Assembly (NCBI RefSeq): GCF_000392435.1 | Contig: NC_021219.1 | Coordinates: 30,001-62,000, forward strand | Direction: 5' to 3' | Length of the DNA stretch: 32,000 nucleotides | Origin: Candidatus Saccharimonas aalborgensis | Lineage (GTDB): Bacteria; Patescibacteriota; Saccharimonadia; Saccharimonadales; Saccharimonadaceae | In this document: positions 6,867-12,687 of the stretch, piece by piece | Layout: every line of letters starts with the position of its first letter | Numbering within the stretch: the stretch's first letter is position 1 | Notes under the pieces: generated by a model | The model's database searches: none | Seen by the model: only the letters and a program-made list of their open reading frames with translations | What the model was told of the DNA's origin: nothing | Made by a program: the position numbers and the translations under genes

Positions 6867-7577
6867 ATGTCGCACCAACCAGAGGCAGTCCGTGTCCCTT
6901 ATCTATTGCGTCCCCTCACCATCGATACGATGGATGAGCAACGCCCCTATTACGTGCGCCCAGGATCCATATCGATCGCGCCAGATAGTGGCGCACTCAC
7001 TCTCCAGGGAGGCGAAAAACTCAAACCCGCAAGCCTGCGTCCACCCGTCATGCTGGGTTATGTCGGTATCATGCTTGTCACTCTATTTGAGGGAGATGAC
7101 TGCACCCCGGTACGCGGGTATGTGGCAGATTTGAGGCGTATCGCAAATGGCAATCTCTTCGATACGGGCACCACTGCCGACATGCCAGGTGATCAGGAGG
7201 AGGCAAATTACTGGGAGGAAACAAGAAAGGCCGAACGTCCTATCGTTGCCTGTATTTCACGTGCTGCCATCAAGGGTGCTGAACTCATTTTCGATGGTGA
7301 CCCCCGCTTTGAGCCCGCAACACGAGAGCTGGCAGCCCTCGCCGACAAGCTTGAGGAGGAGCTCAAAAAAGAACAACTAAAAAAAGCAAAAAAGATGCGT
7401 ATCCCCAAATCACTAAAGGATACACCGTCAGCTGGCGGCTCAGACGATGACCCAGGAGACAAAGAGCCATTGAGCCCTCCGAGTGATAATCCGGATGATT
7501 CGGGCAAGGGCGGGACGAAGCTTAAAGTCCGCAAACATGGTCGCAGCGTGGAGCTAGAGACACTAGAGGATGATTGA
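6867..7577 (+). CDS. Hypothetical protein with an acidic/Lys-rich low-complexity tail
   Basis: 236-aa ORF. The start is uncertain, with an alternative ATG at 6930 (MDEQRPYY). No strong Shine-Dalgarno and no recognised domain. Confidence 0.5.
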   Translation: MSHQPEAVRVPYLLRPLTIDTMDEQRPYYVRPGSISIAPDSGALTLQGGEKLKPASLRPPVMLGYVGIMLVTLFEGDDCTPVRGYVADLRRIANGNLFDTGTTADMPGDQEEANYWEETRKAERPIVACISRAAIKGAELIFDGDPRFEPATRELAALADKLEEELKKEQLKKAKKMRIPKSLKDTPSAGGSDDDPGDKEPLSPPSDNPDDSGKGGTKLKVRKHGRSVELETLEDD

Positions 7578-7619
7578 CGAGGCTGTGCTATACTAGTGTT
7601 ATCCTGCCTGCAAACGAAC

Positions 7620-7740
7620 GTGAAATTGGTATACACGTATGCCTTAGGTGAGAGCCGCCAGTGGCGGGTCGCAAGGGAGTCCACTCTTGAAAGCTGTGCT
7701 TTCAAAGATGTGACGACGGGGTCGCGCTAGCGTGACCATA
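7620..7740 (+). repeat. tRNA-Leu-linked structured element, copy C, fused to a 29-nt 5' fragment of tRNA-Leu(TAG)
   Basis: Positions 7620-7648 (GTGAAATTGGTATACACGTATGCCTTAGG) are identical to tRNA positions 7805-7833, covering the D arm to anticodon-loop position 37. The sequence then continues into the element. H1 (GAGCCGCC-AGT-GGCGGGTC) is at 7652-7670 and H2 (TTGAAAGC-TGT-GCTTTCAA) at 7687-7705. The 3' part CGGGGTCGCG..CGTGACCA matches copy A. Confidence 0.5.
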
Positions 7741-7795
7741 TGCTAGGCCATATGCTCCTCGTCGTACATTGCGATATAATGTCCTTACAAATTAT

Positions 7796-7880
7796 GCGGA
7801 TGTGGTGAAATTGGTATACACGTATGCCTTAGGAGCATATGCCTCACGGCGTGCTGGTTCAAGTCCAGTCATCCGCACCA
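7796..7880 (+). tRNA. tRNA-Leu (anticodon TAG), CCA encoded
   Basis: The acceptor stem is GCGGATG/CATCCGC. The anticodon arm TATGC-CTTAGGA-GCATA gives anticodon TAG. A long variable region is followed by the T arm GCTGG-TTCAAGT-CCAGT, then ACCA. Confidence 0.9.
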
Positions 7881-7915
7881 ACCATAGTACCGACCCTTGT
7901 GGTCGGTTTTATGGT
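7881..7915 (+). terminator. Intrinsic terminator after tRNA-Leu(TAG)
   Basis: The stem is CCGACC/GGTCGG with loop CTTGT, followed by TTTT. The outer arms are ACCATA/TATGGT. The architecture matches the terminator after tRNA-Leu(CAG). Confidence 0.6.
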
Positions 7916-7946
7916 TAGTAAGCGATACTTTGCTGTACCAGTACCC

Positions 7947-8066
7947 GCGGCGTGGTGGTGAGAACTGCCCGTCGGCAGTTCGCAAGGAAACGTCACCGAT
8001 GAGCTAGGCTCATCTGGCTGACTTTCGGGCCCGCAGAATGTGGGCAAGTCCAGTCATCCGCACCAA
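7947..8066 (+). repeat. tRNA-Leu-linked structured element, copy B, ending in a 22-nt copy of the tRNA 3' end
   Basis: H1 (GAACTGCC-CGTC-GGCAGTTC) is at 7962-7981 and H2 (GATGAGC-TAG-GCTCATC) at 7998-8014. An enclosing helix pairs GGTGA (7957-7961) with TCACC (7993-7997). The 3' end CAAGTCCAGTCATCCGCACCAA (8045-8066) is identical to tRNA positions 7860-7881. The 5' end GCGGCGTGGTGGTGA resembles the tRNA 5' end GCGGATGTGGTGA. Confidence 0.55.
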
Positions 8067-8070
8067 ATGA

Positions 8071-8092
8071 AATGAGCGTCATGCTCATTTTT
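8071..8092 (+). terminator. Intrinsic terminator after element copy B
   Basis: The stem is AATGAGC/GCTCATT with loop GTCAT, followed by a T-run. Its position suggests that copy B is transcribed on the + strand. Confidence 0.55.
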
Positions 8093-8108
8093 ATTACATT
8101 ATTCATTA

Positions 8109-8137
8109 TTGTTATTTTGTCAATTTTATGATAGAAT
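8109..8137 (+). promoter_or_regulatory. Sigma70-like promoter for the 475-aa gene
   Basis: TTGTTA (8109-8114), a 17-nt spacer, then TAGAAT (8132-8137), in a very AT-rich patch immediately before the GC-rich island. Confidence 0.5.
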
Positions 8138-8231
8138 ATTAGTCAGGTACGTTACCCCTCTGCAGCCAGCGAGGTGTAATTGTGCAGTAGTTTTCACCCA
8201 CGATCCTAACCCCTAAGGAGGGGATGTTCTG

Positions 8232-9659
8232 ATGACAGCAAGGACAAGCGTGTTGCCGGCGCCCACATGGCACGGCACGCCTGCTAACCTGCAACACCAG
8301 TGGTTTGAGTTCCTGCGCGGGCACGCCCGGCAGCAGGCTCAGACTCGCCCAGCTCAGCTGAGGCGCGAACTGAGCTATGCCCAGTCCGACAACAGAGACG
8401 ATCGTGCTCAACTCCGTAGCTACGCGAACGAGAGTCGCAATCATCAGGAGAAACTCACTCGTCTGCGTGCGTCTGTTCGGACGTACAACGACGAGGACTA
8501 CTTGAACGCACTCGAAGCGCTCTTTGCCCTGCCCGAAGTCATCGCGACCCGGGTAGACAGGCATGGGGCGCTCGTCGTCCTGATTCGTCCGATCCGCAGC
8601 GACAGCCTTGATCTCGGTGACTTCGAGATCTCGTTTGATGATCTCGTTGCTGACTACAACTCATACATTGTGAGGTCTCGACTGACACAGGATGATGTCC
8701 GGTACCGCAACCTAAGTATGTGTGATAGTTTCGGCAATAACACCCACCTCTTCCGCGTTGATTCGCTCACTCGACAGCAATTCTGTGACTTCTACGCTAA
8801 CCTCGACCTTGCCGGACTTGTCCGTGCAATCTCGGAACAGATCAATGAAGTCACGGCTAGCTCCCGAGCGCTTCTCCAGCAAACAGTGCCCGGTGCCGAA
8901 CCGCTCTGGGATGGGTTCGTGGAGAATCCGCTCAAAGCGCTCAAGCAGCTGCAGAAGCGAGCCCTCGACCGGCATCAGCTCGCTCGTCAGATTCGCGAAC
9001 AGGAAAGACTTGTCGCCGACTACGACAGGGCCATGCGCGATCTCCGCGAACGCATTCGACAGAATGAGGCCGACATCCGCCGGATGGAAGCCGAATTGGT
9101 CGCCCTCGAGGCGACGGCGCGACGGCGTGGCGAGATCATCGACCTCGCTGACGCACGTCGGACGCTGCGATTCATCACCCACATGCCCGGGTTCCTCGGC
9201 ATGCGGTTCGACGAGGATGGCACCGCCGTCATTCATATCCGAACCAGCTGGGTGTATCGGGACCGGCGCTATGACCTCGGTGATTTCGAGTTGTGGCTTC
9301 GGCCCAACCGAGGTAACCACAAGGGATACGGTGTCGTGCCGATCCATGCAACACGCCTCCCCAGTGGGGGCAGAAGCACGACTTACTTCAATCGGTACGC
9401 CAGCCATCGTCCTGGTCTCAACGAGAATGACTGGTTCTGCTTCGGAGGGCGCAGCGGCGAGCTCGGCAACATGCTGAATGACGGTGATTTTGGACACTTC
9501 GTCAATATTGCAGTCAACTGCATGAACTCCGTGAACAATGCAGATAAACCAGGTCATGCCCACCACCTCCCTGTCATTCCAATGGAGGAAGTGTGGCGGC
9601 ACCAGCCGCGTACTCGTGCGCGGCGGTGGTTGGCAAGGGTGGCAATCGCCGCCAGCTGA
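8232..9659 (+). CDS. Two-module coiled-coil protein, 475 aa; the C-terminal module is a candidate E2/UBC-like domain (inference)
   Basis: The Shine-Dalgarno AAGGAGG (8215-8221) precedes the ATG at 8232. There is an internal duplication. Module 1 reads coiled coil..ALVVLIRPIRSDSLDLGDFEISF. Module 2 reads coiled coil..AVIHIRTSWVYRDRRYDLGDFELWL. Module 2 continues VVPIHATRLP...YASHRPGLNENDWFCFGG, which resembles the E2 layout of beta-meander, HPN-like loop and catalytic Cys (Cys403, codon 9438-9440). Confidence 0.6.
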   Translation: MTARTSVLPAPTWHGTPANLQHQWFEFLRGHARQQAQTRPAQLRRELSYAQSDNRDDRAQLRSYANESRNHQEKLTRLRASVRTYNDEDYLNALEALFALPEVIATRVDRHGALVVLIRPIRSDSLDLGDFEISFDDLVADYNSYIVRSRLTQDDVRYRNLSMCDSFGNNTHLFRVDSLTRQQFCDFYANLDLAGLVRAISEQINEVTASSRALLQQTVPGAEPLWDGFVENPLKALKQLQKRALDRHQLARQIREQERLVADYDRAMRDLRERIRQNEADIRRMEAELVALEATARRRGEIIDLADARRTLRFITHMPGFLGMRFDEDGTAVIHIRTSWVYRDRRYDLGDFELWLRPNRGNHKGYGVVPIHATRLPSGGRSTTYFNRYASHRPGLNENDWFCFGGRSGELGNMLNDGDFGHFVNIAVNCMNSVNNADKPGHAHHLPVIPMEEVWRHQPRTRARRWLARVAIAAS

Positions 9660-9687
9660 ACCCACTTTGGATCAGAAAACTACACCT

Positions 9688-9723
9688 CGGCGAGTCCGAG
9701 AGCACCCGCTCTCGGACTCGCCG
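9688..9723 (+). terminator. Perfect 15-bp hairpin after the 475-aa gene
   Basis: CGGCGAGTCCGAGAG, loop CACCCG, then CTCTCGGACTCGCCG. No U-tract follows on the + strand, so terminator function is inferred from position only. Confidence 0.5.
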
Positions 9724-9778
9724 AAAGGAGATTTATAGATAGGTAGCGATAAGTTGTGAATAATTTTTGGAAAAACTA

Positions 9779-9807
9779 TTGACGATTTATCAATAAAAGT
9801 TTATAAT
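9779..9807 (+). promoter_or_regulatory. Sigma70-type promoter for the Ubl gene
   Basis: TTGACG (9779-9784), a 17-nt spacer, then TATAAT (9802-9807), in an AT-rich patch. Confidence 0.6.
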
Positions 9808-9882
9808 CTGTATCATGCTGTGCGGGTCCGATACCCCACAGTAGCTCCACCCTCGCATCACCGATCAAGGGAGGCATTGCCC

Positions 9883-10128
9883 ATGTCCAACACCGCCACC
9901 ACCGCTTCTGTGAAGCTGCCCGGAAAGGCCGGCCGCGTCGACGTCACCGTGCCTGAGGGCTCGACCGTCGCCGACGTCCTGTTGGCCGCCGCGGACGCCT
10001 TGGGCGTCCTCGGCAACTTCGACCCCGAGTCGGTCGTCGCCGTCGTCAACAACGAGGAGGCCGACCTCCAGGACGCCGTCCCCGACGGTGCTCAGGTCGA
10101 CGGCACGACCAACGTCGCCAACGGCTGA
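9883..10128 (+). CDS. Ubiquitin-like beta-grasp protein (ThiS/MoaD-like), 81 aa, C-terminus ...NVANG
   Basis: The Shine-Dalgarno AAGGGAGG (9868-9875) precedes the ATG at 9883. The track ORF begins earlier at a GTG (9820). The sequence VDVTVPEGSTVADVLLAAADALG...VAVVNNEEADLQDAVPDGAQVDGTTNVANG-stop follows the ThiS/MoaD pattern (..vNg....d..L.dGD.v.i.p.v.GG). Gly is the last residue. Confidence 0.7.
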   Translation: MSNTATTASVKLPGKAGRVDVTVPEGSTVADVLLAAADALGVLGNFDPESVVAVVNNEEADLQDAVPDGAQVDGTTNVANG

Positions 10129-10466
10129 CTCGACGACTTCCTCGCCATTCGGACCATCCCCGTCGTAGGGGACCATCTAGGACCGAGTGGACCAACGAGA
10201 AGCGAAGTCCCGTCGGAATCGTGTGATGTTAGAGGGCCGTCCATCGTAGTAGTGTCTGTAGCGTGCGGAACCCGTCAAACGGTGCCGTTTCGTCTCCACT
10301 CAGCGGTGTTCGGAACTATATCCGTTTCAAGATCAAAGGGCTGCGCCTCTCTGGTATGTCGGCGATTCTGCTATTAGTAGAATCCTGTCGGCACGACGAC
10401 GAGGGCACCTCAGTAGTGAGCGACGGATCTCACATGTTCCCCCCGGGGGACAAATGGAGCGCATCA

Positions 10467-10526
10467 CCCGACACCCGTCGGGTTTGGGGCGCGGACACTT
10501 CGGTGACCGCGCCCCCTTCGCTTTTT
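10467..10526 (+). terminator. Tandem hairpin terminators closing the Ubl transcription unit
   Basis: The first hairpin is CCCGAC-ACCC-GTCGGG (10467-10482), followed by TTT. The second pairs GGGGCGCGG (10486-10494) with CCGCGCCCC (10507-10515), followed by CTTCGCTTTTT. Confidence 0.65.
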
Positions 10527-10534
10527 GAGAATAC

Positions 10535-10563
10535 TTGATTTTTTTGTTATTTTGTAGTATAAT
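10535..10563 (+). promoter_or_regulatory. Sigma70-type promoter for the JAB-E1 operon
   Basis: TTGATT (10535-10540), a 17-nt spacer, then TATAAT (10558-10563). Confidence 0.55.
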
Positions 10564-10645
10564 AGAAGTGGCATTTTCTAGGTCTATTCCTGGGGTGCTC
10601 GACCCTTTACACCCTAGGCCCACACGAGACAAGGAGTCTTCTACT

Positions 10646-11278
10646 ATGCGCATCCTCTCTGCTCCGTTGACCGCGAAGGACGCACCTAAATTGGTCGTGC
10701 CGACACTCTTCATTTCCTCGAGTGACTACGACCTGATGCTCATCTACGCCCAGACGGCCTCACCACAAGAGGTGAACGGCTATGGGCTGATCGACCAGGG
10801 CGCCCGTGACCAGTTCATATTGTGCCCCGGTGGCCTCTTCATCACCGACCAGGTGGTGACGCAGGTCAGCGCCAAGCCGACTGCGGTCGGCAACGCCTAC
10901 GCCGGCAACCGTGCCGACGAGGCCGGCATGACGCTGGGGCTGCAGTGGCACAGCCACGGCAGGGGCGGAGCGTATCACTCGCCGACCGACATGAACACCG
11001 CCCACAACTACGGGAGGGTCGGCACCATCGACTGGATGATCTGGGTCGTCATCAATGACCGTGGCGACGTAGTCGCACGGCTCGAGCAGTACGCACCAAT
11101 CCGCATCGGCGTGCCGATGACCGTCATCGTCGTCCCCGACAACCACCAGCAGCTGCTGGAGCAGGTCACGGACGACATCGCGCGGCACGTCCGCGTCGAG
11201 ACGCCTCCGATACCATCCAAGGCGCTGGCGGCAACGCCAGCGTTCGTCAGCCCCGACAAGAAGGAGAACACCAAGTGA
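10646..11278 (+). CDS. JAB/MPN (JAMM) metallopeptidase, 210 aa
   Basis: The Shine-Dalgarno AAGGAG (10631-10636) precedes the ATG at 10646. The track ORF start at 10535 lies inside the promoter. The JAMM signature is complete: an upstream Glu in PQEVNGYG, then WHSHGRGGAYHSPTD (H-x-H-x7-S-x-x-D). Confidence 0.8.
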   Translation: MRILSAPLTAKDAPKLVVPTLFISSSDYDLMLIYAQTASPQEVNGYGLIDQGARDQFILCPGGLFITDQVVTQVSAKPTAVGNAYAGNRADEAGMTLGLQWHSHGRGGAYHSPTDMNTAHNYGRVGTIDWMIWVVINDRGDVVARLEQYAPIRIGVPMTVIVVPDNHQQLLEQVTDDIARHVRVETPPIPSKALAATPAFVSPDKKENTK

Positions 11279-11958
11279 GCAACGAGGACTTCGCTCCGAA
11301 CTGGTCCGACCAAGGCGGGATCTTCGATCCCGACAGCTTCGTCGGGACCATTACCATCATCGGGGCGGGGGGTATCGGCGCAAGCCTCATCCCCACGCTG
11401 GTCACCGTCGGTTTCCGGCGGTTCATCATCTACGACCCCGACCGGGTCGAGGACCGCAACATCGCCAGCCAACTGCTCTACAAGCCGCGTGACCTCTACC
11501 GCCCCAAGGTGGAGGTTTGTCAGGAGTACATCCAGACATACGGCGACTGTCAGGTGGTGGTCGAGGTACACCAGCGGCTGTTCACTGCCGAGGACCGCAT
11601 CACGACCCCAGTCGTCATCAGCGCCGTCGACAACCAAGACGCGCGTCGGATGATCTGGCAAGCCGTCCAGGACTCTCCCGACGTGCGACTCCTCATCGAC
11701 GGGCGTATCGGCAGCGAGGCGTTCACTTGCCTCGCCGTCGACATGCTCGACGACAGCGACTGGTATGACACCAAGTTCCTCGGCGACAACATCGCCCAGC
11801 TGCCCTGCGCCAGCCGTGCCATCGCCTACCCGGCGGTGGCGCTCGGTGCCGTCATCACACGGCACCTGGTGCACTGGCACGCTGGGGAGGAACTGCCACG
11901 GCGCGTCTCGCAGGACATGCGAGACCTCGTGCAACTCGTGATCCAGGCCCCGAAGTAA
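11275..11958 (+). CDS. Minimal ThiF/MoeB/E1-like adenylating enzyme, 227 aa
   Basis: The GTG start overlaps the JAB stop (GTGA at 11275-11278), with AAGGAG 8 nt upstream. Motifs are the Rossmann loop IIGAGGIGAS, YDPDRVEDRNIASQ (E1 nucleotide-binding Asp/Asn/Gln motif), RPKVEV, SAVDNQDARR and LPCASRAIAYPAVALG (Cys-containing loop). Confidence 0.8.
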   Translation: MSNEDFAPNWSDQGGIFDPDSFVGTITIIGAGGIGASLIPTLVTVGFRRFIIYDPDRVEDRNIASQLLYKPRDLYRPKVEVCQEYIQTYGDCQVVVEVHQRLFTAEDRITTPVVISAVDNQDARRMIWQAVQDSPDVRLLIDGRIGSEAFTCLAVDMLDDSDWYDTKFLGDNIAQLPCASRAIAYPAVALGAVITRHLVHWHAGEELPRRVSQDMRDLVQLVIQAPK

Positions 11959-12008
11959 GAGGGTCGTTCCGCTTCTCCACCACAGTAGCCAACTGTGCGA
12001 GGAGGAGC

Positions 12009-12073
12009 GGGATAACCGACCATAGATACAACAAGCTATGCTGATGAGCTGTAAACAGCGAATCGGTTATCCC
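12009..12073. other. 11-bp perfect inverted repeat at the right edge of the GC-rich island, between convergent genes
   Basis: GGGATAACCGA (12009-12019) pairs with TCGGTTATCCC (12063-12073), separated by 43 nt. It may be a bidirectional terminator or a boundary structure. Confidence 0.4.
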
Positions 12074-12687
12074 TACGCTCTGTGACCAGTCGTTTTCCGA
12101 TAGTTATACAGACTGAGCGCGAGTGAGCCAAGCAACATACCTGTTGCGGCGTGTTTTGCCCAGCGCGCTTCTTTGCTCTCCGGATACGCATCTCCAACTC
12201 TCAAGCTCACCGAACGTACTGCTGTCGAGAGTTTTCCCCACCACTGTGCTGCACCATCGCCACAGTGTTCTGTTTGGATTGTACGAAGATACGTCGACGT
12301 AACGTCCCGGCCGAGTCTCAGCAAAAACGTCGCAACGTCTAATTCACCGCGAAGCACGCGCAGCAATTCTTGCACAAAAAAATCGAGTTTATCAACAAAT
12401 GGATCAATTACTTTGCCAAAGGCATTTTCGGCTCCCGCACTCCGGATAATTTCGCCGTCTATCTTGTCACCAAGGTCAAGCAGGCTCTCGAGCGCAACAA
12501 ACTGAGCGCGAGATAATTTGCCCCGAGAATGGGCAGCCTCGACAATCATACGCGCAGCGAACCGTCCAAGCGTTACGATATTTGCCTCAATAATCGCGCG
12601 CTGCTGCTCTGGTGAATAATCAGCCCAGGCACCGCGGGTATCCTGGAAACCCTTTGCCAGCGGGCGTAGAACTTCACGAGCTATCAT
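12073..12687 (-). CDS. Hypothetical protein, 204 aa, with a C-terminal hydrophobic segment
   Basis: ORF with backbone composition. No recognised motif. Confidence 0.55.
   Translation of the reverse strand: MIAREVLRPLAKGFQDTRGAWADYSPEQQRAIIEANIVTLGRFAARMIVEAAHSRGKLSRAQFVALESLLDLGDKIDGEIIRSAGAENAFGKVIDPFVDKLDFFVQELLRVLRGELDVATFLLRLGRDVTSTYLRTIQTEHCGDGAAQWWGKLSTAVRSVSLRVGDAYPESKEARWAKHAATGMLLGSLALSLYNYRKTTGHRA

Follow-up and report, generated by a model that had tools for sequence, protein, structure and literature searches.

A four-gene cassette of Candidatus Saccharimonas aalborgensis that probably encodes a ubiquitin-like conjugation cascade of a previously undescribed type

A 32,000-nucleotide stretch of DNA from Candidatus Saccharimonas aalborgensis, a tiny epibiotic bacterium (contig NC_021219.1, positions 30,001 to 62,000; hereafter the window, numbered from its first letter) contains a GC-rich block with four genes on the + strand, which encode a large protein that we call BIG, a ubiquitin-like protein (Ubl), a JAB/JAMM metallopeptidase (JAB) and an activating enzyme of the ThiF type (E1). 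Here, we show that these genes stay together in related loci, that Ubl is nearest to the archaeal protein modifier SAMP2, and that E1 and BIG each carry an invariant cysteine. We propose that the cassette probably constitutes a hitherto undescribed type of E1-E2 cascade for Ubl conjugation, with a module of BIG as the putative conjugating (E2-like) component. The original prediction for this DNA had named the four open reading frames (ORFs) and quoted motifs of Ubl, JAB and E1, all of which are present:

8232..9659, + strand: BIG, 475 aa, taken from the ORF list; WFCFGG at residues 401-406
8484..8906, + strand: N-terminal module of BIG, residues ~85-225; Cys-less duplicate of the C-terminal module
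9132..9626, + strand: C-terminal E2-like module of BIG (C-module), residues 301-465; YDxGD ... FCFGxR ... NxxN; codon of Cys403 at 9438-9440
9883..10128, + strand: Ubl, 81 aa from an internal ATG; VANG directly before the stop
10646..11278, + strand: JAB/JAMM metallopeptidase, 210 aa from an ATG; EVNG and HSHGRGGAYHSPTD both found
11275..11958, + strand: E1, 227 aa; GAGGIG, YDPDRVEDRNIASQ, VDNQDARR and LPCASR; its start overlaps the JAB stop

BIG is identical to L336_0034. The ORF listed for JAB begins at TTG 10535; the true start is likely the ATG at 10646, because a GGAG ribosome-binding site and a promoter-like site precede that ATG. The composition of the block agrees with the GC-rich island described earlier: GC content is 0.60 in the cassette against 0.51 in its flanks, and GC at third codon positions (GC3) reaches 0.915 in Ubl, 0.853 in JAB, 0.855 in E1 and 0.672 in BIG against 0.43-0.55 in the neighbouring genes. 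The GC excess is seen again in most loci of the window's subtype. PADLOC and NCBIfam scans of the window matched the cassette to no known system, and a PHROGs scan gave no match for BIG, Ubl or JAB. Long overlapping or antisense ORFs of 251-317 aa also lie inside the block (8712-9665 and 11008-11934 on the - strand, 8722-9477 on the + strand); these are probably not genes but by-products of the high GC3, which makes stop codons rare.

A single Ubl sequence matches Pfam ThiS weakly. The profile of 11 orthologs matches SAMP2 (PDB 5lda_B, E 9e-8), PF1061, MoaD (E 7.5e-4), SAMP1, ThiS and TtuB, and the Pfam SAMP2 family (PF21965) matches 5 of the 11 (best E 5e-7). The profile matches therefore place Ubl among the beta-grasp proteins of the ThiS/MoaD/SAMP class, with a known protein modifier as its closest relative. 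An exposed single Gly after Asn is the hallmark of the Ubl family: 13 of 15 orthologs end in xNG directly before the stop, one ends in -LG and one, that of L004, in -NGAG, and the terminal Gly is exposed in 14 of the 15. JAB scores above the cutoff of Pfam Prok-JAB (28.5 bits, cutoff 25), and its JAMM site (E45, H102-x-H104 ... S112-x-x-D115) is complete in all 14 orthologs compared. From these residues JAB is predicted to be a Ubl-processing and deconjugating enzyme.

E1 matches Pfam ThiF (E 2.2e-18), and its best sequence matches in the PDB are the adenylation domains of UBA3, UBA7 and SAE2, with UBA5 chains at E about 1e-4. An alignment of 15 orthologs retains the GxGGxG loop, the adenylation residues Arg/Asp and, in LPCAxR, a single invariant Cys (Cys178). 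Cys178 aligns in the crossover loop with Cys184 of E. coli ThiF. This alignment contains no CxxC zinc motifs, inserted Cys domain, UFD or rhodanese; the protein consists of the ThiF domain only, as expected from the earlier description of an E1 reduced to the bare adenylation domain. Its scores lie below all NCBIfam cutoffs (in bits, ThiF 57 of 275, MoeB 33 of 266, MoeZ 24 of 647, UbaA 43 of 450, PRTRC 38.6 of 144.75), and the PADLOC BilD model matches weakly (E 2.8e-7) over residues 27-130, the Rossmann region, only.

BIG had been described as about three times the usual size of an E2, with an internal duplication, and both points hold. An AlphaFold2 model built with a 50-sequence alignment (predicted local distance difference score, pLDDT, 91; predicted template modelling score, pTM, 0.72) comprises two long helices, at residues 20-81 and 233-299, and two modules, an alpha/beta module at residues ~85-225 and the C-module at ~301-465. 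A hidden Markov model of the C-module matches the N-terminal module with E 1.7e-21 in the relative P0017, and with E 1e-8 (4-sequence search) and 3e-6 (153-sequence search) in the window protein, so that, at the level of sequence profiles, the duplication is statistically real. In the N-terminal module the Cys column is occupied by K, M, G or R, from which the module is predicted to be inactive, similar to the ubiquitin E2 variants (UEV). As a true duplicate that lacks the Cys, it makes BIG a predicted active module tethered to an inactive copy.

The Cys of the C-module is its most constant feature. Cys403 is kept in 146 of 147 modules and is the sole invariant column among 59 diverse ones; YDxGD (142-146 of 147), F402, G405, R407 and N435 are conserved as well. 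No His or other general base is conserved alongside Cys403 in the 147-module alignment, and the H-R-P that the original prediction had read as part of an E2-like segment does not hold up: it is not conserved, and H392 falls in an insert column. The only Cys-less member, P0012 (WFNFGGH), comes from a Saccharibacteria locus with a tandem pair of BIG genes (L025, 1172-4165; GCA_964478495.1), where it is encoded by the second; its neighbour P0010, 37% identical, retains WFCFGGR. P0012 thus looks like a pseudo-enzyme partner.

BIG proteins come in three architectures. Besides the duplicated-module coiled-coil form of the window, there is a membrane-anchored form, in which an N-terminal multi-pass membrane region is followed by a coiled coil and the C-module, and a short form of ~250-270 aa that consists of a coiled coil and the C-module. 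The membrane-anchored subtype (loci L010-L019, e.g. L010 7001-8380; proteins P0076 and P0088) has a conserved loop of ~95 aa (YSYG...) in its membrane region. One of its loci, the metagenomic L015, has the BIG gene read as two ORFs, 6992-7642 and 7639-8373, which could reflect a frameshift, a sequencing error or a pseudogene. Outside its modules, the window protein has an N-terminal peptide LPxPTWxG (8253-8276) that is strongly conserved, with P11 and W13 invariant in 50 sequences, and an Arg-rich C-terminal tail, PRxRxRRR (9606-9656); a docking site, or a contact with membrane or nucleic acid, is possible for these two segments.

A profile of BIG relatives, searched against 1.84 billion cluster representatives, returned 351 relatives, ~55 of them full length (at the 50% cluster level) and the others matching in the C-terminal third only. 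The four genes are found together in every homologous locus long enough to judge and across all three BIG architectures; L020 reads BIG-E1-Ubl with no JAB detected. The co-occurrence that had been proposed therefore extends to relatives of about 25% BIG identity with another gene order. The order BIG-Ubl-JAB-E1 of the window recurs in L001, L002, L004, L009 and L025, and BIG-JAB-E1-Ubl is found in L010-L015, L018-L019 and L027; for L014 no Ubl ORF was found, and its contig ends soon after E1. In the sister membrane-anchored subtype the genes form a single operon of four overlapping reading frames. Where a source is named, it is Candidatus Saccharibacteria or Candidatus Microgenomates, all other relatives being metagenomic. 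No relatives of either subtype were found on viral contigs. A scan of genome contigs with strict patterns retrieved two loci, a number that bears little on prevalence.

The neighbours of these loci are housekeeping genes (tRNA synthetases, RecG, RsmD, RNase J, trigger factor, ribosomal protein S16 and TrmD), and no thiamine, molybdopterin, cysteine or siderophore genes stand beside any homologous locus. ThiG, MoaE, CysM and rhodanese partners are absent from the window, as originally noted for the surroundings of the four genes, and so are TtuA-type partners; ~15 related loci lack all of these as well.

Is the C-module an E2? Modelled alone, because Foldseek searches of the PDB with the full-length BIG model gave coiled-coil noise only, it reaches a pLDDT of 89 and a pTM of 0.82. 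The model runs from alpha1 through an antiparallel beta1-4 sheet and a long loop to Cys403 at the start of alpha2, followed by two more helices. Ubiquitin-conjugating (UBC) domains are ordered as alpha1, beta1-4, the Cys loop and then helices, and in the model the secondary-structure order of the C-module is that of UBC domains. Approximately 20 of the 28 top Foldseek matches in the PDB belong to the UBC/UEV/RWD clan (TSG101 UEV, UbcH7, UbcH8, bacterial Cap2, FANCL, RWD), which far exceeds the share of such chains in the PDB. An hhalign comparison with four eukaryotic E2 sequences is colinear over 113 columns and places C403 on the catalytic Cys85 of UBE2D2, YDLGDFE on the 'PYxGGxF' strand and Y-x-H near 'YHPN'. 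Furthermore, a Cys403 with no conserved His is more in keeping with a thioester carrier than with a papain-type hydrolase. On these grounds we infer a UBC fold for the C-module.

Several results weigh against this assignment. Pfam gave no E2-family match for full-length BIG (E<=1), for 10 distant relatives or for 59 isolated modules (E<=10), BIG itself returning coiled-coil noise and nothing else and the 59 modules no recurring family. None of the Foldseek matches of the C-module in the PDB is significant (best E 0.19, template modelling scores 0.2-0.3), and the hhalign comparison with the four eukaryotic E2s has a probability of 4%. The comparison of the C-module profile with E. aridi BilB gave no match (probability 0.1%), and that with PDB sequences gave nothing relevant. 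The HPN motif expected ~10 residues before the Cys is absent from the C-module, where subsets of relatives show a loose Y-x-H or Y-P-x-Y. HPN is likewise missing from several E2s of bacterial or non-canonical type (PMC1779556). Finally, the archaeal SAMPs, the closest relatives of Ubl, conjugate without an E2, and BIG could therefore be something other than an E2. The UBC-like fold with a conserved Cys that had been predicted thus stands as to the Cys and the order of the elements, and lacks a significant fold or profile match. Matches of BIG to LmuB and JetC in PADLOC were rejected as coiled-coil artefacts. In the BFVD database, the best matches of the C-module are unnamed viral proteins of 474-1146 aa (A0A516LHL3, A0A516LW79 and A0A6J5NL39), which align over the whole domain with a Foldseek probability of ~0.9 and non-significant E values of 0.025-0.15; no named E2 is among the top matches.

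How could the four proteins work together? In an E1-E2-type cascade, Ubl would be made with its reactive Gly81 already exposed (-ANG-stop), and JAB would trim the rare extended tails (-NGAG) of relatives. The minimal E1, which presumably forms a homodimer as do ThiF, MoeB and UBA5, would adenylate Gly81 with ATP and then probably carry Ubl on its crossover-loop Cys178, from where Ubl would be handed to Cys403 of the C-module. The coiled coil and the Cys-less module may act as a built-in adaptor that places Ubl or the target, like an E2-UEV pair or an E2/E3 hybrid, and in other subtypes the membrane anchor may give target or location specificity. Ubl would end on a lysine of the target, and JAB would reverse the mark.

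The relationship to SAMP2 suggests an alternative without an E2, a pathway of E1, Ubl and JAB of the sampylation or TtuB type, in which E1 alone drives conjugation or Ubl is a sulfur carrier (e.g. for tRNA thiolation). We consider this unlikely, and likewise the corresponding roles of BIG as main target, scaffold or persulfide relay via Cys403. The best profile matches of Ubl (SAMP2, PF1061, MoaD, SAMP1, ThiS and TtuB) fit such a system, the ThiF and SAMP-activating UbaA models give E1 its best scores, its crossover-loop Cys is of the ThiF type, and the E2 assignment of BIG is not statistically established. However, a Cys this constant (146 of 147 modules, the one Cys-less copy standing next to a Cys-bearing paralog) is more than a scaffold or target would need. 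Sulfur carriers end in -GG, unlike the -NG of Ubl; no rhodanese, ThiG, MoaE, CysM or TtuA-type partner occurs in ~15 loci, and E1 falls far below the cutoffs of all NCBIfam sulfur-pathway models.

It is improbable that BIG is a different Cys enzyme, such as a permuted papain-like or transglutaminase-like peptidase or ligase that acts as second protease or E3-like ligase on Ubl conjugates. The position of Cys403 at a helix N-terminus within the conserved FCFGxR loop would suit such an enzyme, as would the lack of E2 profile matches and the unnamed, non-significant viral proteins, with no named E2, at the top of the BFVD search. A hydrolase is made less likely by the lack of a His conserved with the Cys, nor is another general base conserved. 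In addition, the fold matches cluster on the UBC/UEV/RWD clan, and the operon already has a dedicated JAB peptidase, the sole component otherwise missing being an E2.

The position of the cassette speaks to its history, and its borders are marked by the following features:

7796..7880, + strand: tRNA-Leu (anticodon UAG), found by ARAGORN and Rfam
8045..8066, + strand: 22-nt exact repeat of the tRNA-Leu 3' end at the left cassette border; 0 chance matches expected
11959..12072, no strand: right border zone, where GC returns to the genome level
12073-12687, - strand: CDP-alcohol phosphatidyltransferase gene of native composition, between the cassette and RsmD

In the window, L001, L008, L015 (a membrane-anchored locus) and L025, the gene for tRNA-Leu(UAG) immediately precedes the cassette on its 5' side. 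The cassette also adjoins the RsmD-RecG-TyrRS block, in which RecG is just 44% identical between the window and L015. The occupation of the same tRNA site in genomes this distant shows that the cassette is not simply a one-off foreign island; the foreign composition originally described stands. The border repeat resembles an att-site scar, and homology to L022, which is 85% identical in nucleotide sequence, begins exactly at this repeat. L022 has an alcohol dehydrogenase upstream, no tRNA gene, and the same tRNA fragment with 2 mismatches. No integrase occurs in or near the block. At the right flank, the CDP-alcohol phosphatidyltransferase gene is missing from the corresponding position in L001 and L025, so this side varies too. 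The tRNA-Leu(UAG) gene is itself flanked by partial copies, with ~40 nt of its 5' part (7609-7648) 185 nt upstream and its 3' end 185 nt downstream; these copies look like traces left by integration or recombination events that recurred at this tRNA. Immediately before the tRNA gene lies an ORF of 236 aa (6867-7577, + strand) with an acidic, Lys/Pro-rich C-terminus, for which no Pfam, PADLOC, NCBIfam or PHROG match and no counterpart in L001 was detected.

The cassette also diverges more than its surroundings. In a comparison of two S. aalborgensis genomes, identity is ~98% in the flanks and drops to 90.7% in the cassette, and the synonymous divergence (dS) of BIG is 0.28 against 0.09-0.12 in flanking genes. 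The ratio of nonsynonymous to synonymous divergence (dN/dS) of BIG in this pair, 0.19-0.26, corresponds to purifying selection, and positive selection on BIG was not supported. Between the window and L001, protein identity is 65-78% in the flanks, 33% for BIG, 48% for Ubl, 47% for JAB and 62% for E1. Taken together, the tRNA site, the border repeat, the context of L022, the excess divergence and the GC content indicate an accessory module that is swapped among lineages at a tRNA-linked hotspot under purifying selection, rather than a recent single import or a decaying remnant. That the block is the functionless remnant of an integrated element is very improbable: although tRNA-fragment repeats adjoin it, an integrase is absent, its composition is foreign and the BIG gene of L015 is apparently split in two ORFs, it has four intact ORFs with complete catalytic motifs, a BIG dN/dS of 0.19-0.26, a gene set conserved across Saccharibacteria and Microgenomates, and a strong promoter-like site before each unit.

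The layout of these units was examined by consensus scans, in which 8 promoter-like sites were found against 1.2 expected:

8109..8137, + strand: promoter-like site upstream of BIG; TTGTTA, 17-nt spacer, TAGAAT, with TG extension
9685..9726, no strand: hairpin with a 19-bp stem after BIG, terminator-like; called on the minus strand by the scan
9779..9807, + strand: promoter-like site upstream of Ubl; TTGACG, 17-nt spacer, TATAAT; 11/12 match
10129..10485, + strand: Ubl-JAB spacer, non-coding and GC-rich
10486..10531, + strand: GC-rich inverted repeat forming a hairpin with UUCG loop, then a T run; predicted intrinsic terminator of the Ubl unit
10535..10563, + strand: promoter-like site upstream of JAB-E1; TTGATT, 17-nt spacer, TATAAT; 10/12 match

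With a promoter-like site upstream of each and hairpins after BIG and Ubl, three transcription units (BIG; Ubl; JAB-E1), as also proposed originally, are a plausible reading of these scans. The TTGA ... TATAAT columns of the JAB-E1 site are invariant in 6 loci, and the UUCG hairpin after Ubl is conserved in L001, L004 and L022. In every locus of the window's subtype a long spacer (313-565 nt) separates Ubl from JAB. A hidden ORF or known RNA in the spacer was not supported, as no conserved ORF was found by tblastx and no match in Rfam, and the conserved elements found in the spacer region are the terminator and the promoter only. The segment 10129-10535 folds somewhat better than shuffled sequence (z = -2.85) and could be a structured 3' untranslated region or a small RNA.

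How does the cassette relate to known systems? The same four roles are found in separate genes in BilABCD of Type I/II, the bacterial ISG15-like antiphage operons (rows 6d and 6c; Iyer, Burroughs and Aravind 2006). Bil systems have no E3, and their E2 is thought to select the target itself (10.1101/2024.11.21.623953, 10.1101/2023.09.26.559546, PMC1779556); the cassette is likewise without an E3. It works most like BilABCD, yet fails the defining features of Bil, the multidomain E1 and the BilB-type E2. BilD combines inactive and active adenylation domains with a Cys domain in ~450 aa or more, whereas the E1 of the cassette has 227 aa and no insert in the crossover loop. The C-module does not match the BilB-type E2 (CEHH / Prok-E2), and BIG is a 475-aa protein with coiled coils and a duplicated module. 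The hosts of the cassette, in contrast to those of Bil, are bacteria of the Candidate Phyla Radiation (CPR).

Archaeal sampylation (SAMP1/2, UbaA, HvJAMM1/PfJAMM1) is the system to which the tag itself is closest. The Ubl is most similar to SAMP2 and has the beta-grasp of the SAMP type, and both systems have a single-domain ThiF-type E1 and a JAMM peptidase that would trim or remove the tag. Sampylation has no E2 (PMC4443979, PMC4895103). The cassette differs from it in its fourth, Cys-bearing gene, which is always linked, in a UbaA score of 43 bits against a cutoff of 450, and in a tag that ends in -NG and not in -GG.

Two eukaryotic arrangements offer further parallels. In the UFM1 pathway (UBA5 - UFC1 - UFM1), a minimal E1 with a crossover-loop Cys acts with an E2 that lacks HPN on a Ubl that ends in a single Gly. 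The cassette parallels this pathway in its minimal E1, its putative E2-like module without HPN and its single-Gly tag; the homology is limited to the generic ThiF domain, and UFC1 is not among the fold matches of the C-module. Ubc13-Mms2/Uev1 is an E2 paired with a Cys-less E2 variant. BIG similarly unites a Cys-bearing UBC-like module and its homologous Cys-less counterpart in a single chain; L025 has such a pair as tandem genes, too. In contrast to Ubc13-Mms2/Uev1, the two modules of BIG are linked covalently by coiled coils. No sequence relationship between the two systems was detected, and a function of the Cys-less module in positioning Ubl would follow by analogy only.

Bub (6E/DUF6527) and Cap2/Cap3 of the cyclic oligonucleotide-based antiphage signalling system (CBASS) are bacterial conjugation machineries of the E1/E2/JAB type, as the cassette probably is. 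Bub works through Ser/Tyr oxyester intermediates and includes fusion proteins as well as a DUF6527 serine protease (10.1101/2024.11.21.623953). The cassette was rejected as a member, having no DUF6527 match, no fusions and a conserved Cys in both E1 and BIG. Cap2 of Type II CBASS is an E1-E2 fusion that acts on a CD-NTase, whereas the genes of the cassette are separate. Membership was rejected here as well, as no nucleotidyltransferase or effector occurs in the window or related loci and the E1-E2 matches in PADLOC are weak and confined to the Rossmann region. Membership of the sulfur-carrier systems (ThiS/ThiF, MoaD/MoeB, CysO/MoeZ/Mec+, TtuB/TtuC) fails for lack of a linked acceptor or donor enzyme and with an E1 below the equivalog cutoffs. 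PRTRC was discarded at 38.6 bits against a cutoff of 144.75, with no ParB or PRTRC genes nearby, and the cassette is not 6A-MBL either. Its composition is not among the Iyer-Burroughs-Aravind classes 6a-6e, and literature searches on CPR, Saccharibacteria and elsewhere found no described system of this composition, in agreement with the earlier claim and with the libraries searched. We class the cassette with the bacterial ubiquitination-like operons; what is new is the family of E2-like domains and the distribution in the CPR.

What is the role of the cassette in vivo? The original prediction of a conjugation or defence-type role is supported as to conjugation, together with its expectation that homologous loci lie outside thiamine, molybdopterin, cysteine and siderophore operons; defence remains a guess. 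Because the cassette behaves as an accessory, horizontally exchanged module of foreign composition, our leading guess is a role in conflict, either in defence against phages or mobile elements, as in Bil, or in the interaction between epibiont and host. Direct pointers to defence are absent: PADLOC recognised no defence system, known immune regulators do not adjoin the cassette, viral relatives were not found, and the dN/dS of BIG carries no arms-race signal. The housekeeping neighbours, the lack of such regulators and the modest dN/dS are neutral towards a conflict role or argue against it. Almost as likely is a regulatory function, in which the cassette would modify proteins of its own cell as archaeal sampylation does.

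A broader interpretation, which we put forward tentatively, is that the cassette represents a CPR-wide ubiquitination-like pathway built around an unrecognised branch of the E2 fold (YDxGD ... FCFGxR ... NxxN), intermediate between E2-less Ubl activation in archaea or bacteria and full E1-E2 cascades. Under this tentative interpretation, a tag of the SAMP2 type and a bare ThiF-type E1 would be joined to an E2 step, which gives the pathway its intermediate form, and the E2-like module would be tethered via coiled coils to a pseudo-E2 or to a membrane anchor, or would be free-standing. In Saccharibacteria the pathway would be exchangeable at tRNA-Leu(UAG), and could tag phage, mobile-element or host-interface proteins.

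In conclusion, bacterial ubiquitin-like conjugation has been established recently, in type II CBASS, Bil and Bub, and each of these families brought a different chemistry. The cassette would add a fourth lineage, with an E2-like domain that is invisible to current profile libraries, the smallest possible E1 and a tag near SAMP2. As such, it bears on how an E2 step joined the ancestral E1-Ubl pair, and it is a compact four-protein system for biochemistry. CPR bacteria have reduced genomes of about 1 Mb and keep few accessory systems, and the position of the cassette identifies tRNA-Leu(UAG) as a recombination hotspot in Saccharibacteria. Should the targets turn out to be proteins of phages or of host contact, the cassette would count as one of the first molecular conflict systems reported from the Saccharibacteria epibionts.

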